A stretch of DNA of 64,000 nucleotides from an uncultured Acidobacteriota bacterium (GTDB lineage: Bacteria > Acidobacteriota > Terriglobia > Acidiferrales > UBA7541). Where the stretch lies: the NCBI GenBank assembly GCA_963696605.1, contig CAVOKV010000006.1, positions 86,786 through 150,785 on the forward strand, in the 5' to 3' direction. Below the pieces are notes generated by a model. It saw only the letters and a program-made list of their open reading frames with translations, had not been told where the DNA came from and ran no database searches. Numbering within the stretch: the first letter of the stretch is position 1; each line of letters opens with the position of its first letter. Positions 349-62,952 of the stretch are shown one piece after another. Made by a program: the position numbers and the translations under genes.

Positions 349-645
349 GCCCCCCCAAAGGGCGCGACTTCGAGTTGTCAGTGTGGAGGCCATATCTTCA
401 CGGACGAACTTCCGCCGCAAATTATCAGAATACTACGGCGGAATATGCGATGGGAGATTACTAGAAAATTGGCGCGTGCGGATCTGATCTGCCCCAATTT
501 GGTCGTTCGCGCCGTTAGGAGGGCCGAGTTTCCGCTCGGCCGTCCCCATTGGTTCTGATCGCCGGCTTCAGCCGCTAAAGCTCGCGGCGGAGAACAGGCT
601 GGGATTCGTCAACCAAATAGCAATCGGCAAAGCGGACGCGCAAGT

Positions 646-2175
646 TTACTGTCGCCCGGGTGTTGCCGTTGAATTCCCCACGCGGGCTGCCATCGTAATG
701 CGGCTATGGCGAATGCCGTAACTGAAGTAGATCACTAAGCCGATCACCAGCCACCAAAAGAGGCGCTCCCAGTTTGCGACAGGCAGGGAAAACATCAGGA
801 CTAGACAACACAAGATTCCGAGAATCGGAACGATGGACCCCAGCGGGGCGCGGAATGGCCGATGCACGTCCGGATGCGTGCGCCGCATGATGAAAACCGC
901 CGCGCAAACAATTACGAAAGCCAACAAGGTTCCGATGTTCACGAGTTCAGCCAGAAAGCGCAACGGCAGAAAGGCGCCCATCGCGGCGACGCACAACCCG
1001 GTCAGAATGGTGGACTTCCACGGCGTGCGAAACCTTTCATGCACCGCGCCGAAAAATCCTGTCGGAAGCAAGCCGTCCCGCGCCATCGCCAGGAATATTC
1101 GCGGCTGGCTGAGCATCATGACCAGAAGGACCGACGTGATCCCCGCGATGGCACCGATGGAAACCAGCAATTCGGCCCAGGGCAGGCCCACTTGACGGAA
1201 AGCGTCGGAGACAGGTGCATCGATATTGATCTGGTTGTAAGGCACCATGCCGGTAAGCACGCCGGCGACGGCGATGTATAGAATCGTGCACAGCACGAGG
1301 GAAGTCATAATTCCTATGGGGACGTCGCGGGAAGGATTGCGCGCTTCTTCGGCGTGAGTGGATATCGAATCAAATCCAATGTAGGCAAAGAAGACCAGCG
1401 CGGCACCTGCGAGCATACCTTGTGGTTTCCCGCCGGGCCCGGACTGCCCCAGCACGGTATGGCCAAAGAAGCTGAGACCGCTCAATCCAAACGGCGCAAA
1501 GGGATGCCAATTCGCCGTGTGGACGTACAGCGCACCAACTCCTATGACAAAAAAAACGATGATCAGCTTAAGAATTACAATCGCGGCATTCACACTCGCG
1601 CTCTCGTGAATCCCTTTCACTAGAATCGCCGTGACGATCAACGCGATGGCGATCGCAGGAAGATCGAACCAGGTTCCAGTCAATATGAGATGTCCAGAAG
1701 CCAAATCGTAGTCAAAGGGAGCGTTGGTGAAGTGCTGAGGCAGCCCGATATGGAAGAAGACAAGGAAATCCTGAAAGTAATGTGACCAGCCGTGCGCAAC
1801 CGTGGCCGAGGCCACCGCGTACTCGAGAATCAGGTCCCACCCCATGATCCAGGCAAATAGTTCCCCCAGCGTGGCGTAGGCATAGGTGTAGGCCGATCCC
1901 GCCACGGGCACCATCGAAGCGAACTCCGCATAGCAAAGGGCCGCGAAAACGCATGTGATTCCCGACACCACGAAGGAGAGCATCAGCGCGGGACCGGTAA
2001 GGTCATGGGCCGCGACCCCGGTCAGGACGAAGATGCCGGTACCGATGATCGCTCCCACACCCAGGCTGGAAAGCTGGATGGGGCCAAGGACGCGGCGTAA
2101 CCGATTATCGCTTTGGAGTTCCTCGACCAGCGATTCATGCGTTTTTATTTGAAACAACTGATTCGCCATAATCAC
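646..2175 (-). CDS. APC-superfamily amino acid permease (cationic amino acid transporter-like)
   Basis: 509-aa ORF with about 12 hydrophobic segments. N-terminal ...LGVGAIIGTGIFVLTG... and overall layout are typical of amino acid permeases. Start is either GTG 2175 or ATG 2169. Confidence 0.9.
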   Translation of the reverse strand: MIMANQLFQIKTHESLVEELQSDNRLRRVLGPIQLSSLGVGAIIGTGIFVLTGVAAHDLTGPALMLSFVVSGITCVFAALCYAEFASMVPVAGSAYTYAYATLGELFAWIMGWDLILEYAVASATVAHGWSHYFQDFLVFFHIGLPQHFTNAPFDYDLASGHLILTGTWFDLPAIAIALIVTAILVKGIHESASVNAAIVILKLIIVFFVIGVGALYVHTANWHPFAPFGLSGLSFFGHTVLGQSGPGGKPQGMLAGAALVFFAYIGFDSISTHAEEARNPSRDVPIGIMTSLVLCTILYIAVAGVLTGMVPYNQINIDAPVSDAFRQVGLPWAELLVSIGAIAGITSVLLVMMLSQPRIFLAMARDGLLPTGFFGAVHERFRTPWKSTILTGLCVAAMGAFLPLRFLAELVNIGTLLAFVIVCAAVFIMRRTHPDVHRPFRAPLGSIVPILGILCCLVLMFSLPVANWERLFWWLVIGLVIYFSYGIRHSRITMAARVGNSTATPGRQ

Positions 2176-14713: not shown

Positions 14714-14787
14714 GCGGGCGTAGTTCAATGGTAGAATAGGAGCTTCCCAAGCTCTAGACGTGGGTTCGATTCCCATCGCCCGCTCCA
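14714..14787 (+). tRNA. tRNA-Gly (anticodon CCC), CCA encoded
   Basis: Hand-folded cloverleaf. Acceptor GCGGGCG/CGCCCGC, D arm GTTC/GAAT, anticodon stem GGAGC/GCTCT with loop TTCCCAA, T arm GTGGG-TTCGATT-CCCAT, discriminator T, then CCA. Confidence 0.93.
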
Positions 14788-15222
14788 GATTTCGAAAGGC
14801 TCCTGCAGCAACAACACCAAAATTCTTTCAGGGATTCTTAAGGCCCCGTGCAACAGCATCTTTGTCAACGTGGCGGGACGCATCGCTACGTTAATGCGCC
14901 GCGTCGGCGAGTCGGAGCGCCGAAACCGGCAGGGCGTGCTCCGCACACTCGTAAATCCCTGCATACTCCTTCTTGCCCTGACCAAATATTACCTTCAGAT
15001 TGGGGGACTAGCGGGCTACGGAGCGTTTGAGTCTGCAGCCGGAGTTCAAGTCGGAAATTTGACAGCTGCACTCAGGACTACATGTAGGATTTCAGACGGA
15101 TGCGGAAGAGAGTTAGCCTCTGGGTGAAGACTTTTGAAGTGAGAGCCTCAGGATCTCGATTCGCAATGAGTGTGATTCGTCTAGGATTCGCTGTCCGTTC
15201 CAAGCCCTAGTCAAATGAAAAT

Positions 15223-15253
15223 GGGGGGAGGAAGCCTAAGGCTTCCTCCCCCC
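15223..15253 (-). terminator. intrinsic terminator of pilA
   Basis: GGGGGGAGGAAGCC-TAA-GGCTTCCTCCCCCC (14-bp stem), followed on the minus strand by ATTTTCATTT. Sits 24 nt after the pilA stop. Confidence 0.85.
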
Positions 15254-15276
15254 ATCGTATTTCTAGCCGATCGGGC

Positions 15277-22502: not shown

Positions 22503-25500
22503 TTAGTTTAATTCCTCGACGGTTCGCGCGAGTTCACGGAATCGACACAGTGCGTTCGCGACCTGCATCTGACGAGGGCTGCGGCATTCGGGTTCAAACA
22601 GTCGTGGACTTGCCACTATAATTACATTCGACATGGCCCTGGACGTAGCGACGTTCAGCCGATTCAAACTGTAAAGAAACTCCATTCCGCGTGGAGCGTC
22701 CTCCTGCGAAGAAGTTGTCAATGAATAGATCACAACCGGTGCTTCCTGCCCTTGAAATTTGTCCACAGTCCCAATCCGCATCTTCGGCAGCCTTGTCGAC
22801 AAGTCCGCTACCTGCGCGTTATAGGGCGCCACAATTAAAATGTCTTTCTCCTGTAGCCTCCGGCTATTACCCGCTCCATAAAACCATTTCACATTAGGCT
22901 GCAGCAATCCGTCCACAATCCGCGCTACGACTTCCGCTTCCTCCGTTGACGAGTTTCGGTTCCCCTCATGCTCTACAGGAACAAACCACAGTCCCGCCCC
23001 ATTTAACCAAGCGTGCCCGTCCAAAACTCGGCTCCGGGCAATCGCATGCGAACTCAACTTGTCTTCATAAAAAACCGACGAAGTAAATTTGCATATCTCC
23101 GGATGCAATCTCCAACTCTCAGGCAATAAAAATCCCATGTCCTCAGGAATCGTCTTCCGTCCATCCAGAAGGTGCTCCAATGCCGATTTCTCGGCTCCAT
23201 CCGGATGGCTCCCCTTCAGTGGCCGTTCCAGCTGCTGCGGATCACCGAGTAGGACCAACTTATTTGCCGATTGAGAGACCGCAAGAACATCAGCCAGGGA
23301 CATCTGGCCCGCTTCGTCGATAAACAGAACGTCCACCGCTTCAAAAGCTGGCTCAGGAGACCACAACCATGCCGTTCCTCCAACAACATTGGCTTCGCCG
23401 GAGCGCAGAGCCTCTAGTGCTTCTTCGCTGCTCTTCGCCACGGCAACACCCTCGCTTTCAGCACCATCCGGCTCGCGGTGCATGCATCGCACTCCCGCCA
23501 CGTCCTTTTCCTGAGCCGCTTCGACCACTGCCTCCAACAAGTTGCGGATCACTTTGTGGCTCAGTGCCGTCACGCCAATCCTTTTTCCGCTTCTTACTAA
23601 TTCGCAAATCATCCTTGCACCCGTATGGGTCTTTCCCGAGCCAGGTGGACCTTGGATTGCAAACACTGAATCCTTCAGAGCCAGCACTATCCGGCTCGCG
23701 GTACTCTCGGGCGTCTCCGCAGCTTTTGGCTTGAGCGTCTCTCCATCGACCAGACGGGGCGAATTCCGCAGCAACAAATCTCGCCCCGCGCGATTGCGCC
23801 CCGGCGCGTCGAGTCCGTTTGCCACCACCCACATTCCCATCCGATAAAGAGAACCCGCCTGCGCATCTGTGTTCAGTGGAGCGTCCCACATGTAGACCGT
23901 AGGAGGATGTACGTCGGCGGTCTTCTTCGTCTTCTTGATGTCAGCGACGCCGTTCTCTCGGTCGATGGCTACAACTTCTCCCAATTTGTCATCTCCGAAA
24001 TACAAATCCTTGCCGACACGCACGTTGCTCTTTTGCGGTTCGAATAAGTAACGATCTGTTGGCACTTGCCGTCCAAGCTCGATTCTTTTCACAAAGCGCA
24101 TTTGTGTCAGACCCACTCGCTCATCAAGCAAACCTTCATCATCCATTTCCGCAAGGCGATTACCTTCTTGCCAAGCCCTCTTGTCCTCGCGACGGTGCCA
24201 ACTAACAAGCTGTGCCAACAGCCACTGACCGGATTGCTCCCTAGACCTCGACTTCGGATCAGCTGGAATTCCTTCACAGAGCCGTTGCGTCAACGCCATC
24301 GCTCGATCCAATTTTTCTTGCAGCTTCTCGGAAGGATCTCCACTTTTTTCTGGCGGCCTTGGAACAGCTTTTCCACCTTCCACCAGCTTCTGCCGTTCCT
24401 TCTCGAGCCAATTTCGCAACCCTACCGCAGAAAGGCAATCCTCGCAGTTATACCCTTCCATCACTCCGCGAACGGCGTCCGGCAACTCTTCGTCCCCCCA
24501 GCCCAACTCCAACCGGTGTTCCATGTACCGCATACTGGCCGGTGATTCATCCAACGGCGTTCCCCGGTCGAATCCGTAGAATCCTTCCAACTTCTTCAGG
24601 GAATATTCCTCAACACTGGCGCGCATGCCTTGCCTGAAGGCCTGATGTAAATCAACGAGCACACCCGCCCTTAGAAGGCGATCGACCTCGTCTTCCCGCG
24701 TCGCGTACATTCCCATCAATCGCTTGAGCGTCCCCGGCTCATACGATCCGAAGTGATACACATGCATTTGAGGACTCGCCTTTCGCCGCTTGGTGATCTC
24801 ATCCACTAGCCACTCGAAACTTCTCTTCTCGTCCTCGCGGCTCAGTGACCATCGCTTCTGGTAACTCATTTCGCCGTCCGCATTCTTTGCTGTAAACCCA
24901 AACAGATATTGCATCCCTGAATCGCCCACGAATGGGTCGCCTTCCAAATCGATAAATACGTCGTCCGCCGATGGCTCAGGTAATCTGCAAAGACCCATTT
25001 CGTTCGCTATTGGCAAGAGAGGCTCATGCAATAGCTTTTTCTCTGTGCGTCCCTGTACCTGCACACGCGCTTGTTCCCGTGCCCGCTCATATCCACCTTT
25101 GGACCCATGTAGCGGCCTCTGCTCAATTGGAATTGGCAGAATCGCCAGCTCCTCCATGGTTTTGGTATGCCAGCTGTTGAATTGATTCCGTTGGAGCCGT
25201 GTGATTCCAGCGACCAGCGATAGGTCATCGTCGGCACGTCGCTTTGCATCACATTCGCGAAACCAGAGACACACATCGCAATGGCTGCATGGTTCTGGAT
25301 ACGTATTTTCAAACTGCTCGTGATCGCACAAATTTTCGAGCCGAGCCTTCACATATCGGTAGTAGGCAGAATATTCCGCACAGCGGTATGCCTCTGCTTC
25401 GAAATTCCGGCCGGGAGGAATCACGTACATAAACTCCGGCGATTCAGCCTGGATCTGCGTGAGTAGGTCCGAATAAAGAGCAAGCTGCAGGATCGTTGCC

Positions 25501-25925
25501 GCTTTCGTCTCGCGCGCCAGTTTGCAGTCATAGACTTGGTATGACCATGGTCCGAAGCGGCTCGGCTTCGTCACTTTTGCCATGACATCGGGCCGTCCGA
25601 ACCAACGTCCAACCCCTATACTTCCCTGCGCGATGATTTCCACACCGCGTTCCATACACGACAAAGTTTCGGCAAGCGCTCGCTGCTCGTCTGTTATTTC
25701 CCGTAAATCCACTAGTGACAGGCCCTTGTCTTGGAGAGATCTTAGGTAGGCAGCCTCATGTTGCATGCCCAATTCTTGAATCACGATTGCGTCGGGAGCC
25801 CTCCACTCTGGGGCATTTCGCCGGCCGCGTGCGACACCTAGACTCAGCGTGGTGAGATGACGGCAAGCCGAATGGTTGCCGAGGTCGGTTGCCGCCAAAC
25901 GAATTTGGTTGGAGATAAGCTTCAC
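22503..25925 (-). CDS. RecB-like (PD-(D/E)xK, Fe-S cluster) nuclease fused to an SF1 Upf1/DNA2-like helicase
   Basis: 1140 aa. Nuclease motifs: D112, D133-C-K135, Q147xxxY151. Cys21 plus C216-x2-C219-x5-C225 (Cas4/AddB-type cluster). FIDLEGDPF exonuclease-like block (TM0106-type architecture). Helicase motifs: Walker A GPPGSGKT (aa 759-766), FIDEAGQ (868-874), GDPQQL, TVDKFQGQE, NVATSRA. Clearly lower GC than its flanks. Confidence 0.9.
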   Translation of the reverse strand: MKLISNQIRLAATDLGNHSACRHLTTLSLGVARGRRNAPEWRAPDAIVIQELGMQHEAAYLRSLQDKGLSLVDLREITDEQRALAETLSCMERGVEIIAQGSIGVGRWFGRPDVMAKVTKPSRFGPWSYQVYDCKLARETKAATILQLALYSDLLTQIQAESPEFMYVIPPGRNFEAEAYRCAEYSAYYRYVKARLENLCDHEQFENTYPEPCSHCDVCLWFRECDAKRRADDDLSLVAGITRLQRNQFNSWHTKTMEELAILPIPIEQRPLHGSKGGYERAREQARVQVQGRTEKKLLHEPLLPIANEMGLCRLPEPSADDVFIDLEGDPFVGDSGMQYLFGFTAKNADGEMSYQKRWSLSREDEKRSFEWLVDEITKRRKASPQMHVYHFGSYEPGTLKRLMGMYATREDEVDRLLRAGVLVDLHQAFRQGMRASVEEYSLKKLEGFYGFDRGTPLDESPASMRYMEHRLELGWGDEELPDAVRGVMEGYNCEDCLSAVGLRNWLEKERQKLVEGGKAVPRPPEKSGDPSEKLQEKLDRAMALTQRLCEGIPADPKSRSREQSGQWLLAQLVSWHRREDKRAWQEGNRLAEMDDEGLLDERVGLTQMRFVKRIELGRQVPTDRYLFEPQKSNVRVGKDLYFGDDKLGEVVAIDRENGVADIKKTKKTADVHPPTVYMWDAPLNTDAQAGSLYRMGMWVVANGLDAPGRNRAGRDLLLRNSPRLVDGETLKPKAAETPESTASRIVLALKDSVFAIQGPPGSGKTHTGARMICELVRSGKRIGVTALSHKVIRNLLEAVVEAAQEKDVAGVRCMHREPDGAESEGVAVAKSSEEALEALRSGEANVVGGTAWLWSPEPAFEAVDVLFIDEAGQMSLADVLAVSQSANKLVLLGDPQQLERPLKGSHPDGAEKSALEHLLDGRKTIPEDMGFLLPESWRLHPEICKFTSSVFYEDKLSSHAIARSRVLDGHAWLNGAGLWFVPVEHEGNRNSSTEEAEVVARIVDGLLQPNVKWFYGAGNSRRLQEKDILIVAPYNAQVADLSTRLPKMRIGTVDKFQGQEAPVVIYSLTTSSQEDAPRGMEFLYSLNRLNVATSRAMSNVIIVASPRLFEPECRSPRQMQVANALCRFRELARTVEELN

Positions 25926-30964: not shown

Positions 30965-31036
30965 GTGGCACAAACTTCAGTCTGTAAGGGTTGGGCCTTG
31001 CAAGGCCAAAAATCCACAGACTGAAGTCCGTGCTAC
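30965..31036. repeat. REPIN-like doublet B (family 1, degenerate)
   Basis: GTGGCACAAAC-TTCA-GTCTGT ... ACAGAC-TGAA-GTCCGTGCTAC. The spacer contains the palindrome GGCCTTGCAAGGCC. Confidence 0.75.
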
Positions 31037-32645: not shown

Positions 32646-32755
32646 GTATGACAGCCACTCCTGGCTGTCCGCTTTTCGATTGCCTGTGCAGCGATGGAGA
32701 GGCAAGCCCTAGATGGGACCGCGAGAGAGAGGACAGCCAAGAGTGGCTGTCCTAC
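32646..32755. repeat. REPIN-like doublet C (family 1, ACAGCCA stem type)
   Basis: GTATGACAGCCA-CTCC-TGGCTGTCC (32646-32670) ... GGACAGCCA-AGAG-TGGCTGTCCTAC (32731-32755). 60-nt spacer. Lies in a divergent intergenic region. Confidence 0.85.
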
Positions 32756-36318: not shown

Positions 36319-36323
36319 ATGAT

Positions 36324-36394
36324 TAGCACAGGCTTCAGCCTGTGAGTTTTAGTCCTCACACTTACAAAACCCCACAGGCTGAAGCCTGTGCTAC
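36324..36394. repeat. REPIN-like doublet D (family 1)
   Basis: TAGCACAGGC-TTCA-GCCTGTG ... CACAGGC-TGAA-GCCTGTGCTAC. Between convergent genes. Confidence 0.9.
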
Positions 36395-38115: not shown

Positions 38116-38327
38116 GAACGCCTCCCTGGCAGATGGCTAAATCCGGATACCAATGTGGTAGCAATATAGACTCGTCCGGCCAAGGAATCAATGCGCCAGA
38201 TCATGTGATTCGTGAATCGTGATTTGTAATTCGGGGAGAGCCCGATGTGTATTTCACTGCGTCGAATTTCTCTGTGTTCCATCTGTCCTCTGTGATAAAT
38301 GTTTTTCACTTCTCAGGAGCGGGAACA

Positions 38328-39953
38328 ATGATTGAAGAAAAAGACGTCCTGATCCGCGTTCGCGATGGAATTCACATGGCCGCGCGAATTTACAGACCGG
38401 ATGGCGCCGGGCCTTTCCCCACGCTCTTTGCCACTTCGCCCTATCGCTATGACAACAACACTCTGCCTGCACAACCGATGTTCTTGTGGCGGGAAACCGG
38501 GCCGATCGAGTGGTACGTGGACCACGGCTACGCCTACGTGCACGCCGATGTTCGCGGAACGGGGCGCTCGGAGGGCGAATTCGAATTCCTCGGCCAGCGC
38601 GAGCAGCACGACCTGTACGACGTGATCGAGTGGATTGGGACGCAGCCCTGGTGCAACGGAAAAGTCGGCGGCATAGGACAGTCCTACTATGCCATGTCGC
38701 AATGGTTCATGGGGATTCAGAACCCTCCCCACCTGGCGTGCATTGCACCCTACGATGGTTTGAACGATCCCTATCGATTTATGGGCTATCCGGGCGGCAT
38801 CGAGGGCGCATTCCTGGCCTACTGGATGAATGCCAGCGTGCGCGTGCCGAATCTCTATCCGGCGAATGGAGACAATCCGCGGCACGTGGCGACCGACCTG
38901 TTCCTGGAAGTGCAGCAGCATCCTTTCTACGATGGTTTCTGGAAGGAACGCGCAGCGTTCGAACAATTGAGCAAGATCAAAGTGCCGCTGTTCTCGATCG
39001 GCGTGTGGGCCAAGCAGGAACTACACCTCGCGGGAAACATCCGAGGCTATCAGCTGGCCAGCGGTCCGAAGAAACTCGCCATCAGCGGTACGGCGACTCC
39101 GTTTTCTTCGCAATCCGATTTTGCGGGCCTGGAATTTCACCAGAAATATTTGCTCCCGTTCTACGACAAATATTTGAAAGACCTCAAGACCAGCTATGAC
39201 GAGAGGCCCAACGTTGAATATTTGGTGCGCAATACGGGAAAGGCAAGGGCATTCGACGCTTGGCCGCCGCCAGGGACAAAACCGCTGCATTTCTATCTGA
39301 GCAAAGGACCGACAGGAAGTGTGACGTCGCTCAACGACGGCGGCTTGGACGCCGCTGCTTCCGGCAAAAGCGGCGGGGGCACCAGCTATACGTATCCGCA
39401 TCCTTCCTGGGTGCTGGGCGTGGTGCCGGTCGGACCCGCTGGACCCGATCCAGTCCGTGGTGTGCTCACGTTCACGACACAGCCGCTGGCGAATGACACG
39501 GAAATCGCCGGGACCGCAAAATTGATTCTCTACGCGGCATCGACGCGGAGCGACACGGATTTTATCGTCAAGATTTCGGAGCAGTTTGAGCAAAGCCATG
39601 AGGAGCGCGCACGCGGCGTTCAGCCTCGAAATTTCATCGTCACGAAAGGATGGCTGCGCGCTTCCCACATGGACCGCGACTCGGTGCACAACACCGAGGA
39701 AATTCCCTACTATACCCACGAGCGGGCGACGCCGCTGAATCCGGGTACGATCTACAAGTTTGAAATTCCGTTCCAGCCAATCGCGTACCTCTTCCACAAA
39801 CGTAACCGGATTCGCGTGGAAATCTGCAACGGCGATTCACCCGTGACGGACTCTTTGTTCTTTCACTTTTACAGGCCGGACAAAATCGGGACCGACACGA
39901 TTTACCACGACGCGGATCATCCTTCGGAGCTTATCCTGCCCGTGCTGATGTAG
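38328..39953 (+). CDS. CocE/NonD family (S15 X-Pro dipeptidyl-peptidase-like) hydrolase
   Basis: 541 aa from ATG 38328. DVRGTGRSEGEF and GGIGQSYYAM nucleophile elbow. C-terminal beta-sandwich. The stop TAG lies inside the GTAG head of repeat E. Confidence 0.88.
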   Translation: MIEEKDVLIRVRDGIHMAARIYRPDGAGPFPTLFATSPYRYDNNTLPAQPMFLWRETGPIEWYVDHGYAYVHADVRGTGRSEGEFEFLGQREQHDLYDVIEWIGTQPWCNGKVGGIGQSYYAMSQWFMGIQNPPHLACIAPYDGLNDPYRFMGYPGGIEGAFLAYWMNASVRVPNLYPANGDNPRHVATDLFLEVQQHPFYDGFWKERAAFEQLSKIKVPLFSIGVWAKQELHLAGNIRGYQLASGPKKLAISGTATPFSSQSDFAGLEFHQKYLLPFYDKYLKDLKTSYDERPNVEYLVRNTGKARAFDAWPPPGTKPLHFYLSKGPTGSVTSLNDGGLDAAASGKSGGGTSYTYPHPSWVLGVVPVGPAGPDPVRGVLTFTTQPLANDTEIAGTAKLILYAASTRSDTDFIVKISEQFEQSHEERARGVQPRNFIVTKGWLRASHMDRDSVHNTEEIPYYTHERATPLNPGTIYKFEIPFQPIAYLFHKRNRIRVEICNGDSPVTDSLFFHFYRPDKIGTDTIYHDADHPSELILPVLM

Positions 39954-40049
39954 CGCAGGCACTCTTGCCTGTGCGATTTTTGCAGTGTTCATTTCTCCGA
40001 GCATTAAAGACTAGCGTAAACCCCGCACAGGCAGGAGTGCCTGTGCTAC
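39950..40049. repeat. REPIN-like doublet E (family 1, CACAGGCA stem type)
   Basis: GTAGCGCAGGCA-CTCT-TGCCTGTGCG (39950-39975) ... CGCACAGGCA-GGAG-TGCCTGTGCTAC (40024-40049). Confidence 0.9.
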
Positions 40050-42111: not shown

Positions 42112-43302
42112 ATGGCTGACACAATCTCCGTTGCGTCTCAAGTCCAGGCCCGGACAGATCTTCGTGCTGCCGCCGCCACGGATTCAATCCCCTGGTACAT
42201 CTGGTCGTGTCTCGTTGCGGTCATCTCCAGCGTTATCGGCGGAGCGTGGGACATTTCCTGGCACGAGAGTATTGGCCGCGACACGTTCTGGACCACGCCG
42301 CATATTCTGATTCAGCTGTGCGGCGTGATCTCAGGCCTTTGCTGCGGCTATCTGAGTCTGTCCACTACGTTCCAGAAAAATTCGGCTTTGCGGGCCCATT
42401 CCATTTCGATGTGGGGCTTCCGCGGGCCCATGGGCGCGTTTCTGTGCGCCTGGGGCGGCGTGTGCATGATTACCTCGGCGCCGTTCGACAATTGGTGGCA
42501 TTCGGCCTACGGACTGGACGTGAAAATCCTCAGTCCGCCGCACGTCTTGCTGGCGCTGGGAATGACGGGCATTCGTTTTGGCACCGTGGTCCTGATCGTA
42601 TCCGAGATGAACCGCGCCCAAGGGGAATACCGCGTCCGGCTCGAGCGCTTGCTGTTTTTCGCGTTTATTTTTCTGTTTGGCATGACCATCGGAATCGCTC
42701 AGGAGTACACGGTCCGCCCGCTCATGCATGGAGCGAGGTTCTATCTGGTGGCAGCGCTCATCGCGCCGATTATTATGGGTGCGATAGCAGCGGCCACAAA
42801 GCATCCCTGGGCTGCGACCATCACGACCGCGATGTACACTGCCACGCATTTGGCGTTCACTTGGATATTGCCTCTCTTTCCGGCGGAACCCAAGCTCGGA
42901 CCGGTCTATCAAAAAATTACGCATCTTATCCCGCCGGATTTTCCGATGCTTTTGATCGTGCCGGCGATTGTCTTCGATCTGGTGCGCCGGCGAATCGGAG
43001 TGTGGAACCGGTGGGCCCAGGCGGCAGCGCTTGGCGCGGCGTTTCTGGCCAGCTTTATTTTGGTGCAGTGGCCATTCGCGGATTTTCTGATGTCTCCGGC
43101 TTCACGCAACTGGATTTTCGCGACGAACAATTTTCCCTATTTCATACCGCCCAGGTCTCCGTGGGCCCGCAATATTTTTTTCCCGACCGAAGCAAGCCCC
43201 ACGGCCTTCTGTTTTGAAATGGGCATAGCGGTCCTTGTCGCTATTATCATGACCGACCTTGGGACGCGCTGGGGCGAGTGGATGCGGCAGATTCGCAGGT
43301 GA
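42112..43302 (+). CDS. hypothetical polytopic membrane protein
   Basis: 396 aa with about 10 TM. Conserved-looking His/Trp motifs (GGAWDISWHESIGRDTFWTTPH; FDNWWHSAYG). The overlapping ORF 42207..43217 is an Arg-rich alternate frame. Confidence 0.75.
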   Translation: MADTISVASQVQARTDLRAAAATDSIPWYIWSCLVAVISSVIGGAWDISWHESIGRDTFWTTPHILIQLCGVISGLCCGYLSLSTTFQKNSALRAHSISMWGFRGPMGAFLCAWGGVCMITSAPFDNWWHSAYGLDVKILSPPHVLLALGMTGIRFGTVVLIVSEMNRAQGEYRVRLERLLFFAFIFLFGMTIGIAQEYTVRPLMHGARFYLVAALIAPIIMGAIAAATKHPWAATITTAMYTATHLAFTWILPLFPAEPKLGPVYQKITHLIPPDFPMLLIVPAIVFDLVRRRIGVWNRWAQAAALGAAFLASFILVQWPFADFLMSPASRNWIFATNNFPYFIPPRSPWARNIFFPTEASPTAFCFEMGIAVLVAIIMTDLGTRWGEWMRQIRR

Positions 43303-43310
43303 AAGCTTTA

Positions 43311-43413
43311 GTAGCACGGCCACTCCTGGCTGTGCGGTTTTGTGAGTTGCAAGTGTGGGCCGTAAATCTTGTGACAGTTGCAAACCCCGCACAGGCATGA
43401 GTGCCTGTGCTAC
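43311..43413. repeat. REPIN-like doublet F (family 1, hybrid arms)
   Basis: GTAGCACGGCCA-CTCC-TGGCTGTGCG (43311-43336) ... CGCACAGGCA-TGAG-TGCCTGTGCTAC (43388-43413). The two arms carry different stems, each self-complementary. Confidence 0.9.
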
Positions 43414-44982: not shown

Positions 44983-45057
44983 GTAGGTTAGGCTTTAGCC
45001 TGTCGCGTTGACGGTAGGGCTTTCCACTAAAAGCAGACAGGCTGAAGCCTATCCTAC
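44983..45057. repeat. REPIN-like doublet G (family 1)
   Basis: GTAGGTTAGGC-TTTA-GCCTGTC ... CAGACAGGC-TGAA-GCCTATCCTAC. The right-arm CTAC contains the stop (45056..45054) of the adjacent minus-strand gene. Confidence 0.8.
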
Positions 45058-46043
45058 CTAAAGCGCGGAAACAGTTTTAACGCATTGTCACGATTGACGG
45101 CGCGCTTGATCTCGTCCGAAACTTGATAATTGTCCCAGCCGTTGGCCGTCGGACCGACGGCACGGTAAGGAAAGTCGCTCCCCCACAAAATCTGCGAGGT
45201 TGGCACCAGGTTCATGAGAGCGGCAAGCGATGAATTGTTAGTCGCGTTCGCCACGTCATAGTGCAATCTCTTGAGCTCGTAGAGAACGCCGTTCGGCACG
45301 CGCGAGGCCAGCGCGCTGCGCGCCTGGAAAAAACCGTTGATGCGCGCAGCCAGCACCGGCATGGTCCCGCCGGAATGGCAAAAGATGAAGCGGATGTCCG
45401 GACAGCGGGCGAACGTGCCGTTCACGAGAAAGCTGACGATCGCGCGGGTGGTATCGAAAACAAATTCAACCACATTGGAAGGAATTCCTGGGATTAAATT
45501 TGCGCAGCAGCAAGGCTCGGTCGGATGGACGAAAACGATGGCCTTGCGGCGATTCAGCTCGTCGAATACCGGAGCAAAGGCAGGATCGCCCGGCCACTTG
45601 TCGTCGTAACTCGTTTGGAGGTAAACGCCGTCGGCTTCGAGCGAGTCAAAGGCATAGGCGATCTCCGCGAGGCTCCCGTCGACATCCGGTAGTGGGAGCG
45701 CGGCGAACATGCCGAAACGCTGCGGATAGTCTTTGGATAGCCGCGCTCCATATTCATTCGCGATGCGCGCGAGCTTGACCGAATTTTCCTTACCCTTGTG
45801 CCACGCGCCCGGCACGGGCAGCGACAAGAGGGACGAGGCGATGCCGAACTCTTCCATCTGCTCTAGAGTCACGTCGGGAGTCCATTTCAAGACAGTAGTG
45901 TCACCCGACGTAATTTCAAGAATGCGGTCGCGGGTGAGATTCGCATATTCTGGCGGGAGCATGTGGTGATGCACATCGATGCGGCGTGGATTTGACGCCG
46001 CTTTTGCACCAGGATCTGTCGGCAGCGCATTGCTAGCGCACAA
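45054..46043 (-). CDS. amidohydrolase_2 (ACMSD/hydroxybenzoate decarboxylase-like) family protein
   Basis: RRIDVHHHMLPPEY metal motif. TIM-barrel hydrolase layout. GAGGAGG lies 7 nt before TTG 46043 (the track start at 46049 is only 1 nt from the SD). Confidence 0.85.
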   Translation of the reverse strand: MCASNALPTDPGAKAASNPRRIDVHHHMLPPEYANLTRDRILEITSGDTTVLKWTPDVTLEQMEEFGIASSLLSLPVPGAWHKGKENSVKLARIANEYGARLSKDYPQRFGMFAALPLPDVDGSLAEIAYAFDSLEADGVYLQTSYDDKWPGDPAFAPVFDELNRRKAIVFVHPTEPCCCANLIPGIPSNVVEFVFDTTRAIVSFLVNGTFARCPDIRFIFCHSGGTMPVLAARINGFFQARSALASRVPNGVLYELKRLHYDVANATNNSSLAALMNLVPTSQILWGSDFPYRAVGPTANGWDNYQVSDEIKRAVNRDNALKLFPRFR

Positions 46044-46060
46044 TGGCAAACCTCCTCAGC

Positions 46061-46627: not shown

Positions 46628-46692
46628 GTAGCGCCCGCCTTCAGGCGGGCATTGTTAGTTTGACCGAATGCCCGCCTGAAGGCGGGCGCTAC
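46628..46692. repeat. REPIN-like doublet H (family 1, GCCCGCC stem type)
   Basis: GTAGCGCCCGCC-TTCA-GGCGGGCA ... TGCCCGCC-TGAA-GGCGGGCGCTAC. Perfect inverted arms. The stem sequence is unrelated to the other copies, but the head and loop are conserved. Confidence 0.9.
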
Positions 46693-51629: not shown

Positions 51630-51704
51630 GTGGAACAGCCACTCATGGCTGTCCGCTTCAGCCTGGATGAGATTGCCAGGGACAGCCAAGAGTGGCTGTC
51701 CTAC
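51630..51704. repeat. REPIN-like doublet I (family 1, ACAGCCA stem type)
   Basis: GTGGAACAGCCA-CTCA-TGGCTGTCC ... GGACAGCCA-AGAG-TGGCTGTCCTAC. The right arm is identical to that of doublet C. Confidence 0.85.
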
Positions 51705-61526: not shown

Positions 61527-61925
61527 GTGAAAATTAAGAATTTGGCATTTCTGATGTTCGCTGTTTGGACTTTTGTGTTCTCAGCGCCAGTCTTTGCACA
61601 TCACGGGGCGTCGGTGTATGACTCGACGAAATTGACCACTGTGAAGGGCACGGTCACGGATTTCCAGTTCATGAATCCGCACACGGAAATCTTGTTCGAG
61701 GTGACGGGCGCGAACGGGAAAGTCGAAAAATGGACCGCGGAAGCCCCAAGCCTGACCACTATGTCCCGGATGGGATGGAACAAGACTTTGTTCAAGCCGG
61801 GAGACCAGATCACATTTGTTGGCAACCTCGCGAAAAACGGATCGCATATCATGCGCCTGCGCAAGGTTGTGTTTCCGAACGGCAAGGAAACCGTGATGGA
61901 TCGCGGCGAGGATTACGCGGAGTAG
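61527..61925 (+). CDS. exported DUF6152-like protein
   Basis: 132 aa from GTG 61527 (GAGGTG 5 nt upstream). Signal peptide ending FA|HHGASVYD. KGTVTDFQFMNPH pattern. Confidence 0.75.
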   Translation: MKIKNLAFLMFAVWTFVFSAPVFAHHGASVYDSTKLTTVKGTVTDFQFMNPHTEILFEVTGANGKVEKWTAEAPSLTTMSRMGWNKTLFKPGDQITFVGNLAKNGSHIMRLRKVVFPNGKETVMDRGEDYAE

Positions 61926-61948
61926 CGTCCGCCGGGGGAGTTTCAGGA

Positions 61949-62743
61949 ATGCGCGATCGCATATTGGTTTTGATGCTTGCTGTAGCGGCCGCTTTCGCCT
62001 CAGCGCCCGCGATCCGCGCCCAGACTGCCGACGGAGTCGCGCCAAGCGCCCACGCACAGGCCCCACCCGTGGACCTTTCCGGAGTTTGGCGGCGATCCCG
62101 GCGCGCGCCTGACAAGCTGCGCAAGTACACGATTTACGAGCTGGCGTTTGCCATCACCAGCGAGAAGCCGCCCATGACTCCCTGGGCGGAAGAAAAATTC
62201 AAAGCCAACAAGCCTAACGTCGGACCGAGGGCTGTTTCCTTATCAGAATCAAACGATCCGATCATGCAGTGCTCTCCCCCAGGGGTTCCGAGGATCTATC
62301 TCATTCGAGGGGAACCAGTGGAGATCGCGAATCTCCCTGGCCGTGTGCTGATGCTCTTCGAGTACGATCATTTCGTGCGCAACATCTACACCGATGGGCG
62401 CGAGCATGCTAAGGATTTACCCGGTACATGGATGGGAGACTCGATCGGCAAATGGGATGGAGACACGCTGGTAGTGGACTCTGTGGGTTTTAACGACAAA
62501 ACGTGGCTGGACAACGATGGCCACCCGCACACCGAGGACCTGCACGTTGTGGAGCGCATTCGTCGCGTGAACCACGATACCTTGACGATCGATACCACGA
62601 TCGAAGACCCCAAGGCATATTCCAAACCCTGGGGAGGGCACGCCATCTACGATTTGAAGCCTGGATGGAATCTTGGGGAAATGGTGTGCGAGGACAACAC
62701 TACGTACGGCGACATGCAGCAAAAATCTGAAGGCAAGAAGTAG
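61949..62743 (+). CDS. exported hypothetical protein
   Basis: 264 aa from ATG 61949 (GGGGGAG SD). Signal peptide ...IRAQT. The stop TAG lies inside the GTAG head of repeat J. Confidence 0.75.
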   Translation: MRDRILVLMLAVAAAFASAPAIRAQTADGVAPSAHAQAPPVDLSGVWRRSRRAPDKLRKYTIYELAFAITSEKPPMTPWAEEKFKANKPNVGPRAVSLSESNDPIMQCSPPGVPRIYLIRGEPVEIANLPGRVLMLFEYDHFVRNIYTDGREHAKDLPGTWMGDSIGKWDGDTLVVDSVGFNDKTWLDNDGHPHTEDLHVVERIRRVNHDTLTIDTTIEDPKAYSKPWGGHAIYDLKPGWNLGEMVCEDNTTYGDMQQKSEGKK

Positions 62744-62952
62744 GACAGGCTTCAGTGGCTGCGGAAAAACTCAAACCTCTGTCATTCTGAGCGAAGCGAA
62801 GAATCTCTCTTCGATTTAAGTATAAGAAAAAAACAAGGAGAGATTCTTCGCTTCGCTCAGAATGACAGAACAAGGCACTTTTTCCGCAACCTGTTCAGCC
62901 TGTCAGTTTAAGTTTAGCCTCTCCAAACTCGACAGGCTGAAGCCTGTCCTAC
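62740..62952. repeat. REPIN-like doublet J (family 1) with its left arm interrupted by a nested element
   Basis: GTAGGACAGGC-TTCAG | 138-bp insert | TTCAG-CCTGTC ... GACAGGC-TGAA-GCCTGTCCTAC (62931-62952). Confidence 0.85.
62756..62893. mobile_element. family-2 MITE-like element inserted into the loop of a family-1 hairpin
   Basis: 138 bp. Terminal inverted repeats (T)GGCTGCGGAAAAA / TTTTTCCGCAACC(TG). Perfect internal 29-bp inverted repeat GTCATTCTGAGCGAAGCGAAGAATCTCTC (62781-62809 / 62838-62866). Flanked by a direct TTCAG duplication (62751-62755 and 62894-62898). Confidence 0.7.

Follow-up and report, generated by a model that had tools for sequence, protein, structure and literature searches.

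The window, meaning the whole 64-kb stretch of DNA from an uncultured Acidobacteriota bacterium analysed here, carries ten head-out doublets of small hairpins (A–J), every one of which lies between open reading frames (ORFs). In each arm GTAG or a one-base variant of it immediately precedes the stem, the stems are 7–9 bp and the loops 4–6 nt long, and a pattern composed of the head and the 5′ half-stem gave 8 exact matches in the window against 0.00 expected. The elements thus show the head, the short G+C-rich stem, the repetitiveness and the extragenic location of GTAG-type REP sequences. Their stems are short, continuous and without a conserved internal mismatch, which does not conform to E. 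coli-type BIMEs or group 2 REPs. An Rfam search of the window returned one tRNA and nothing else.

Doublet A (2181–2256) is of the GTAG-GACAGGC-ttca type, its right arm having a TTAG head and a T·G wobble, and J (62740–62952) is of the GACAGGC-ttca type with a left arm interrupted in the loop by a nested inverted-repeat element. The GACAGCC-actcnt type is represented by C (32646–32755, 110 nt) and by I (51630–51704, 75 nt), the left head of which has decayed to GTGG. Doublet D (36323–36394), of the CACAGGC-ttca type, has convergent ORFs on either side, G (44983–45057) belongs to the G[AT]TAGGC-tt[ct]a type, and H (46628–46692) reads GTAGC-GCCCGCC-ttca-GGCGGGC with 100% arm-to-arm complementarity. 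Doublets E (39950–40049) and F (43311–43413) belong to one family of about 101 nt: E is homotypic, with GGC in both arms and a G·T wobble in the left one, and F is a hybrid, with GCC on the left and GGC on the right. The stem types and the copies A and C–J listed in the sequence-only reading are all present; B (30965–31036), with degenerate arms and an orthologue in the related locus L083, adds a fifth type with the stem CACAGAC/GTCTGTG. At the site of C, the orthologous position in L083 holds a doublet of the same type as in the window (76 nt), and those in L122 and L123 hold a TTCA-type doublet.

Some of the heads supply stop codons. The TAG of the left head of E (39950–39953) ends ORF 38247–39953, the left GTAG head of J (62740–62743) is the stop of ORF 61730–62743, and the right head of G (45054–45057, minus strand) contains the TAG stop of ORF 45054–46049 (minus strand). 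In L121, which has no doublet E, the orthologous gene is three codons longer, so the insertion of E replaced the end of the gene. The nested element in J (62756–62890, about 135 nt) has terminal inverted repeats TGGCTGCGGAAAAA...TTTTTCCGCAACC, TTCAG at both sides and an inner 40-nt inverted repeat at 62778–62869; it resembles sequences in L020, L030 and L074, and the L020 copy also lies within a REP doublet.

Two further features of the window were noted. A perfect 17-nt inverted repeat (ATGGGGGGAGGAAGCCT / AGGCTTCCTCCCCCCAT, 1 nt apart) that has no relation to the REPs is located at 15221–15255, some 430 nt downstream of the window's single tRNA gene (tRNA-Gly, 14714–14787). Between 22000 and 28000 the GC skew swings from values of -0.13 to -0.15 over 22–26 kb to +0.18 at 26–28 kb, coinciding with a 1140-aa ORF at 22503–25925 (minus strand).

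Doublet F and its family

Doublet F is a head-out pair of two GTAG-tagged hairpins, the left of which begins 9 nt past the stop of ORF 42112–43302. The left (alpha) arm on the plus strand (43311–43334) consists of the GTAG head and the hairpin CACGGCCA-ctcc-TGGCTGTG of the GCC type with one G·T wobble. The right (beta) arm on the minus strand (43390–43413) reads GTAG CACAGGCA-ctca-TGCCTGTG, is of the GGC type and has a perfect 9-bp stem. The 55-nt spacer between them (43335–43389), the middle of which is not conserved, contains the alpha tail CGGTTTTGTGAG after the left arm and the beta tail CGGGGTTTGCAACTGT (in the sense of the right head) adjoining the right arm.

The two arms differ at four positions, namely one A/G difference in the 5′ half, both halves of the flipped pair (C:G versus G:C) and one loop base, which bears out the earlier observation of four mismatches including a matched C/G and G/C swap. 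The accompanying statement that each arm folds perfectly needs correction, as the left stem (CACGGCCA versus TGGCTGTG) holds a G·T wobble, the counterpart of which on the complementary strand is an A·C mismatch. The predicted DNA folding energies of the left arm are -9.2 kcal/mol for the strand with GTAG and -6.7 for its complement, and those of the right arm -11.1 to -11.6 kcal/mol; for each arm, none of 200 shuffles folds as well. The predicted minimum-energy fold of the complete single-stranded F is the long hairpin formed between the arms, at -29.2 kcal/mol compared with -20.3 for the two small hairpins, and on this modelling thermodynamics alone would not predict recognition of the small hairpins in F.

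The family of F and E consists of doublets of about 101 nt with a GTAGC head, an ACTCNT loop and one variable stem pair (GGC or GCC), the general plan of an arm being the GTAG head, a G+C-rich stem of 8–9 bp, a 4-nt loop and a tail with a G-rich stretch and a T run. Metagenome contigs were scanned with the whole doublet as the pattern and all four letters of the variable pair left free. This yielded 120 distinct doublets, whose lengths cluster at 95–110 nt: 45 are GCC/GCC, 43 are GGC/GGC, 31 (26%) are hybrids and one has a non-complementary arm. Consequently, 239 of the 240 arms are self-complementary at the variable pair, and the two arms are identical in only 74% of the doublets. A comparison of the flanks resolved these copies into 107 separate loci, of which 29 carry hybrids only; L077 (3068–3168), L105, L108 and L114 provide further hybrids. 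The sequence-only reading had named as unfavourable to it the case that F were a recombinant of neighbouring elements with no other hybrid copies, and hybrids are found at no fewer than 29 separate loci.

The tails on the inner side of the arms are conserved in two forms, alpha CGGTTTTGTAGGCCGC and beta CGGGTTTTGCGATCGT, with normally one of each per doublet, and this asymmetry allowed the hybrids to be oriented either by their tails or by a spacer-only profile from which the stem letters were excluded. According to the tails, 18 hybrids have GCC in the alpha arm and GGC in the beta arm and none has the reverse arrangement; the spacer-only model gives 23 versus 1, with the lone exception aligning poorly. 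The family thus shows three stem-pair states: GGC/GGC, alpha-GCC/beta-GGC and GCC/GCC. F itself, with a score of 19.0 versus 0 for alpha on the left, has the common hybrid configuration, and so does L077 3068–3168.

F is therefore a member of a propagated hybrid subfamily, a common inherited variant and not a local recombinant. The inherited unit is the whole doublet and not the single hairpin: F is an inverted REP pair with a short spacer that is inherited as one unit, i.e. a REPIN. The proposal that the swap in F records an independent compensatory event does not hold, given the direction of the hybrids (23 versus 1) and the common configuration of F; a single old flip amplified as a whole doublet is sufficient to account for its hybrid state. 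The spacers hardly cluster by arm type (identity of 0.634 within types and 0.628 between them). Hybrid spacers are as similar to those of GCC/GCC doublets as to each other (0.654 in both comparisons) and less so to those of GGC/GGC doublets (0.618), which fits an order of events in which the alpha arm flipped before the beta arm.

Pairing within arms and the same sites in relatives

A pattern scan with one genome per species found at least 119 loci (L001–L119), mostly in Acidobacteriota MAGs, with at least 117 head-out doublets among the matches listed. When the variable stem pair was left free, all 176 exact matches listed were complementary at it (150 G..C, 26 C..G, no GG or CC). The matches listed in a relaxed scan include 357 arms, all with GTAG or a one-base variant directly 5′ of the stem; alternative Watson–Crick states occur at five of the seven stem pairs of these arms, and their non-Watson–Crick pairs comprise 66 G·T and 35 A·C on the GTAG strand. 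Within F's own family the single-transition variants are five G·T and no A·C on the same strand. Intermediates of the G·G or C·C kind at the flipped pair are almost absent, with one among the 240 arms of the 120 doublets and 13 among the 357 arms listed.

Covariation within the stems is strong. For 213 distinct arms among the matches listed, 91.5% of the stem cells are paired, compared with 80.2% after shuffling of the partners (maximum 82.6% in 1000 shuffles). For 80 hand-selected arms the values are 96.8% and 83.3±1.0%, the covariation score is 0.367 versus 0.138 in shuffled sets and is reached by none of 500 shuffles, four of the seven pairs have changed on both sides, and controls with a slid register are 23–43% paired. 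These figures count copies, which do not represent independent mutational events, and the very high counts of complementary arms go back to a small number of mutations that were then amplified.

Clear doublets of the core REP, GTAG-S-ACAGGC-loop-GCCTGT-S, are present in MAGs assigned to Acidobacteriota, Planctomycetota, Verrucomicrobiota, Chloroflexota, Bacteroidota, Dormibacterota and 'Deltaproteobacteria', and its loop variants TTCA, TTCCA and ATTCCT are typical of particular lineages; this distribution could stem from horizontal transfer, from a very ancient origin or from errors in binning. The use of heads is tied to genome and subfamily (L122, L123, L083, L027). All 10 arms of L122 have a GTGG head, even at sites where the window has GTAG, and in the closest MAG GTGG goes with the C[AG]CAGGC-ttca arms and GTAG with the remaining subfamilies, which suggests either co-evolution of head and enzyme or homogenisation of the resident copies.

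An exact-product look-up for both genes flanking F returned no record, and syntenic loci were reached through homologues of the gene upstream of F, which in the relatives is 79–85% identical to that of the window at the nucleotide level and 57–69% at third codon positions. The site of F is empty in L124 and L125. In L122 a GGC/GGC doublet sits at this very junction, but it is inverted relative to F and its mid-spacer is unrelated; in L121 (11200–11300), L123 (11200–11300) and L127 (7195–7290) the site is occupied by another inverted-repeat element with CTCTGTG...CACAGAG arms and a T-rich centre. Presence and absence at orthologous sites, as expected of a mobile element, are thus observed for F. 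A derivation of F in place from the L122 doublet was considered and rejected, because the latter is inverted and its mid-spacer similarity to F lies at the 9.5th percentile of random family pairs. The REP type also varies between relatives at the sites of C, E and H. Only at the site of D does the spacer similarity follow the gene tree, so that this doublet is orthologous by descent, and its orthologues in four relatives differ at one pair of the stem, which is A:T, G·T or G:C. The gaps at gene ends appear to be re-used as insertion points (sites of F, C, E and H), and a TTWA motif is found upstream of many heads.

Grouping the metagenomic loci by matching flanks reveals five clusters in which the arm types differ. 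The arms of L164 and L181 differ only at four coordinated letters, and their mid-spacers are more alike than those of 96% of random family pairs; this is the one pair of four with the same flanks whose spacer similarity exceeds the family background, the others being at background level. Judging by these sequences, switching of the arm type in place at orthologous loci is possible. Between relatives the arms are 87.7% identical and the spacers 58%, which argues only weakly for purifying selection, since some of the elements found at the same site may be independent insertions.

Transposase genes and explanations of the hybrid state

Searches by tblastn, motif regular expressions and phmmer with E. 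coli RayT as the query detected no gene for a REP-associated tyrosine transposase (RAYT) or another Y1 protein, either in the window or across 0.95 Mb of related genome sequence (119 pieces listed), so the source genome's own enzyme is unseen in this material, which counts against the explanation favoured below. In 0.74 Mb of doublet-bearing metagenome contigs there are five or six RAYT-like ORFs, four of them above the Pfam PF01797 cut-off of 23 (32.5–39.8 bits). One of these, ORF 467–1081 (minus strand) of L172, with 34.9 bits against PF01797, is flanked by 101-nt GGC/GGC doublets at 367–467 and 1023–1123, and its TAG stop falls within the GTAG head of a flanking doublet (464–467). The REP/RAYT framing of the sequence-only reading is thus upheld by a related contig, outside the window itself. 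The best NCBIfam model for the L172 protein is NF047646 (REP-associated tyrosine transposase), with 71.1 bits against an equivalog cut-off of 80 and an IS200 score of 23.6; the L167 protein reaches 74.8 bits with the same model and 27.9 with IS200. Both proteins fall just below the cut-off, which is a further point against the favoured explanation, and the RAYT of L196/L224 lies above it at 113.8 bits. A PDB sequence search with the L172 protein gave nothing at E ≤ 0.01. In L173 a RAYT fragment adjoins a hybrid doublet.

The RAYT of L167 is situated between GTAGGACAGGC-ttaca doublets of the GACAGGC-ttaca family. The L167 contig (1–14355) holds 17 GTAGGACAGGC doublets in 14 kb around the gene and one GCC/GCC doublet of F's family. 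The L172 and L167 proteins are 52% identical and are associated with distinct REP families; therefore, different REP families go with different RAYTs.

Taken together, F is probably a REPIN of an asymmetric GTAG REP family, preserved in the hybrid state, whose arms are recognised separately by a RAYT as small hairpins. The G:C pair would have flipped to C:G once in the alpha arm of a GGC/GGC master copy and later a second time in the beta arm, and each state would have been amplified as a whole doublet, making F an ordinary copy of the middle, hybrid one. By analogy with published RAYT biochemistry, the enzyme, a Y1/HUH transposase, would act on single-stranded DNA and may recognise each arm alone by its small hairpin and the 5′ GTAG on one strand. 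If each arm is recognised separately, pairing within the arm is required and identity between the arms is not. We infer that an enzyme of the L172 type may mobilise the family, that the flip may have had a single origin and that the host may make use of the arms at present. Against a single origin stand the weak clustering of spacers by arm type and the sites with matching flanks and different arm types, with which recurrent switching is compatible. Against separate recognition of the arms stands the long arm-to-arm hairpin as the predicted minimum-energy fold of F. The earlier proposal of recognition or selection acting on the small hairpins stands as regards the constraint within arms, but the data are compatible with selection as well as with mutation by template switching. 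Its other half, that the long arm-to-arm duplex is not the target, agrees with the frequency of non-identical arms, yet the doublet is still inherited as a unit and the long hairpin is still its predicted fold.

Template switching, or quasipalindrome correction, would transfer a change between the two halves of a hairpin or between the arms, producing compensation in one step without any recognition. Such switching is reportedly a documented source of compensatory changes in hairpins. It would explain why a flip that otherwise takes two transversions through G·G or C·C has left almost no intermediates, and why L164 and L181 differ at coordinated positions only. We nevertheless regard it as rather unlikely to be the main cause, as it accounts neither for the strict direction of the hybrids nor for their persistence at 26% without arm-to-arm correction, just one pair of copies at the same site has spacers above the family background, and the A:T, G·T and G:C series together with the excess of G·T on the GTAG strand resembles stepwise point mutation under a strand-specific tolerance. 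A function at the RNA level, compatible with mobilisation by a RAYT, is possible, if doubtful: host selection would maintain each arm as a terminator or 3′ mRNA stabiliser for the transcripts of its own side, which would make the head-out doublet a bidirectional terminator. Effects of REPs on termination and mRNA stability have been reported (PMC3733652; bioRxiv 10.1101/2021.07.10.451892). The arms of H, E, F (left), D and G, with SGGTTTTG tails, are among the top terminator-like matches in the 32.5–52 kb part of the window, arms with a TTCA loop have T at +4 to +6 past the stem in 64–74% of the copies, the T run is kept in the acidobacterial subfamilies, and the elements lie 0–18 nt past stop codons. 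By our reading of the ORF list, four doublets are placed between convergent genes, four between unidirectional ones and one between divergent ones, one case being unclear. However, the T run starts 2–3 nt beyond the stem and has only 3–5 T, copies with a 5-nt loop (mostly Planctomycetota loci) are without it, doublet C is located between divergent genes where no terminator is needed, and for the four doublets between unidirectional genes the arm nearer the gene is no better preserved than the distal one. The wobbles are G·U-compatible on the strand carried by incoming transcripts, as an RNA function would have it, but the bias of G·T over A·C fails to discriminate RNA from single-stranded DNA recognition: a transcript entering the doublet has the GTAG strand of the arm that it meets first, and both explanations use that strand.

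The supposition that F is a single case, produced by local recombination of neighbouring elements or by a compensatory change private to this locus, can practically be dismissed. It could appeal to the homotypic GGC/GGC doublet at the same junction in L122, but that element, being inverted and having a dissimilar mid-spacer, is no simple ancestor of F, 31 of the 120 family members at 29 or more loci are likewise hybrid, and F follows their common direction. Two RAYT paralogues, one for GCC stems and the other for GGC stems, are very unlikely too. The usual situation is one RAYT per REP family (PMC3733652), and RAYTs of 52% identity are indeed flanked by distinct families, CACAGGC-actcnt in L172 and GACAGGC-ttaca in L167. 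In the case of GCC and GGC, though, hybrids combine the two stem types within a single inherited unit, with no difference in heads, loops or tails, both types share contigs (E and F in the window; L077), and the sole REPtron found for the family is flanked by GGC/GGC doublets while the fragment in L173 adjoins a hybrid. The suggestion that several cognate specificities coexist thus applies to distinct REP families and is unnecessary for GCC versus GGC, where the hybrids argue for one enzyme. Finally, the strict polarity of the hybrids, the arm types that barely track the spacers and the loci with matching flanks and different types have led us to consider a polar arm-by-arm conversion, by RAYT strand exchange or template switching, that would flip the pair in one step, spread to the partner arm and rewrite resident REPINs in place. 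It seems improbable at present; if true, it would amount to concerted evolution of resident REPINs, beyond the mere addition of copies.

Comparison with known REP systems

F's family is an unusually clean natural experiment that bears on the question of whether the transposase of REPINs sees the long hairpin or two small ones: pairing within the arm is kept in 239 of 240 arms and arm-to-arm complementarity is dispensable in a quarter of the copies; the series GGC/GGC, hybrid and GCC/GCC offers defined substrates for RAYT recognition. The terminator-like arms and the stop-supplying GTAG heads show repeats woven into gene ends.

The elements resemble the GTAG REP super-family described by Di Nocera, De Gregorio & Rocco in 2013 (PMC3733652) in the 5′ GTAG or GTGG beside a stem of 6–9 bp, the short loop and the prevalence of head-out (HH) dimers with 20–100 bp spacers between convergent or unidirectional genes. 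According to that survey, most families include subfamilies that differ by complementary changes of stem residues, G·T pairs are common, the dimers are homo- or heterodimers, including different-stem and hybrid ones, and RAYT genes are flanked by REPs, some of which overlap the gene end (PMC3733652). Complementary stem variants, G·T pairing and heterodimers had therefore been known for GTAG REPs; what is new is the quantified contrast of pairing within and between arms, a hybrid class with a strict direction and arms that resemble terminators. The family of F, compared with the 24 families of the survey by description and not by consensus, is mainly acidobacterial, unlike the surveyed hosts, which were Proteobacteria, Cyanobacteria, Chloroflexi and the PVC group. 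In Acidobacteria the survey found only transposases flanked by unrelated inverted repeats and no GTAG REPs (PMC3733652), so that the range of GTAG REPs and REPIN–RAYT systems is extended here to abundant soil Acidobacteriota.

In REPIN–RAYT systems the doublet is the replicative unit (Bertels & Rainey 2011, PMC3116915). As in Pseudomonas fluorescens SBW25 (PMC3116915), the REPs are inverted, the spacer is conserved in length and variable in sequence, the RAYT is flanked by the repeat, and presence and absence differ between relatives. The compensatory changes described in SBW25 are found between the two sides of the long hairpin, whereas in F's family they are inside one arm and break the long hairpin; unlike SBW25 REPINs, the family is also asymmetric in its alpha and beta tails, and one quarter of its copies are heterotypic (PMC3116915).

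Joint amplification of different stems or loops is shared with the E. coli BIMEs (Y/Z REP pairs), P. aeruginosa GTAG-24 and the hybrid dimers of S. maltophilia. In E. coli a single RAYT, TnpA-REP, acts on all three REP types (PMC8266576 / PMC3733652). Binding of RAYT to single-stranded REP is strand-specific, with GTAG as the key determinant for short perfect palindromes (PMC8266576), and by analogy such recognition would fit the bias of G·T over A·C seen here. The REPs of E. coli form long, imperfect palindromes in which a bulge is essential, whereas the hairpins of F's family are short with essentially complete pairing, as in the 'group 3' REPs (PMC8266576), and unlike those of the E. coli BIMEs their two arms differ by one flipped base pair and not in architecture.
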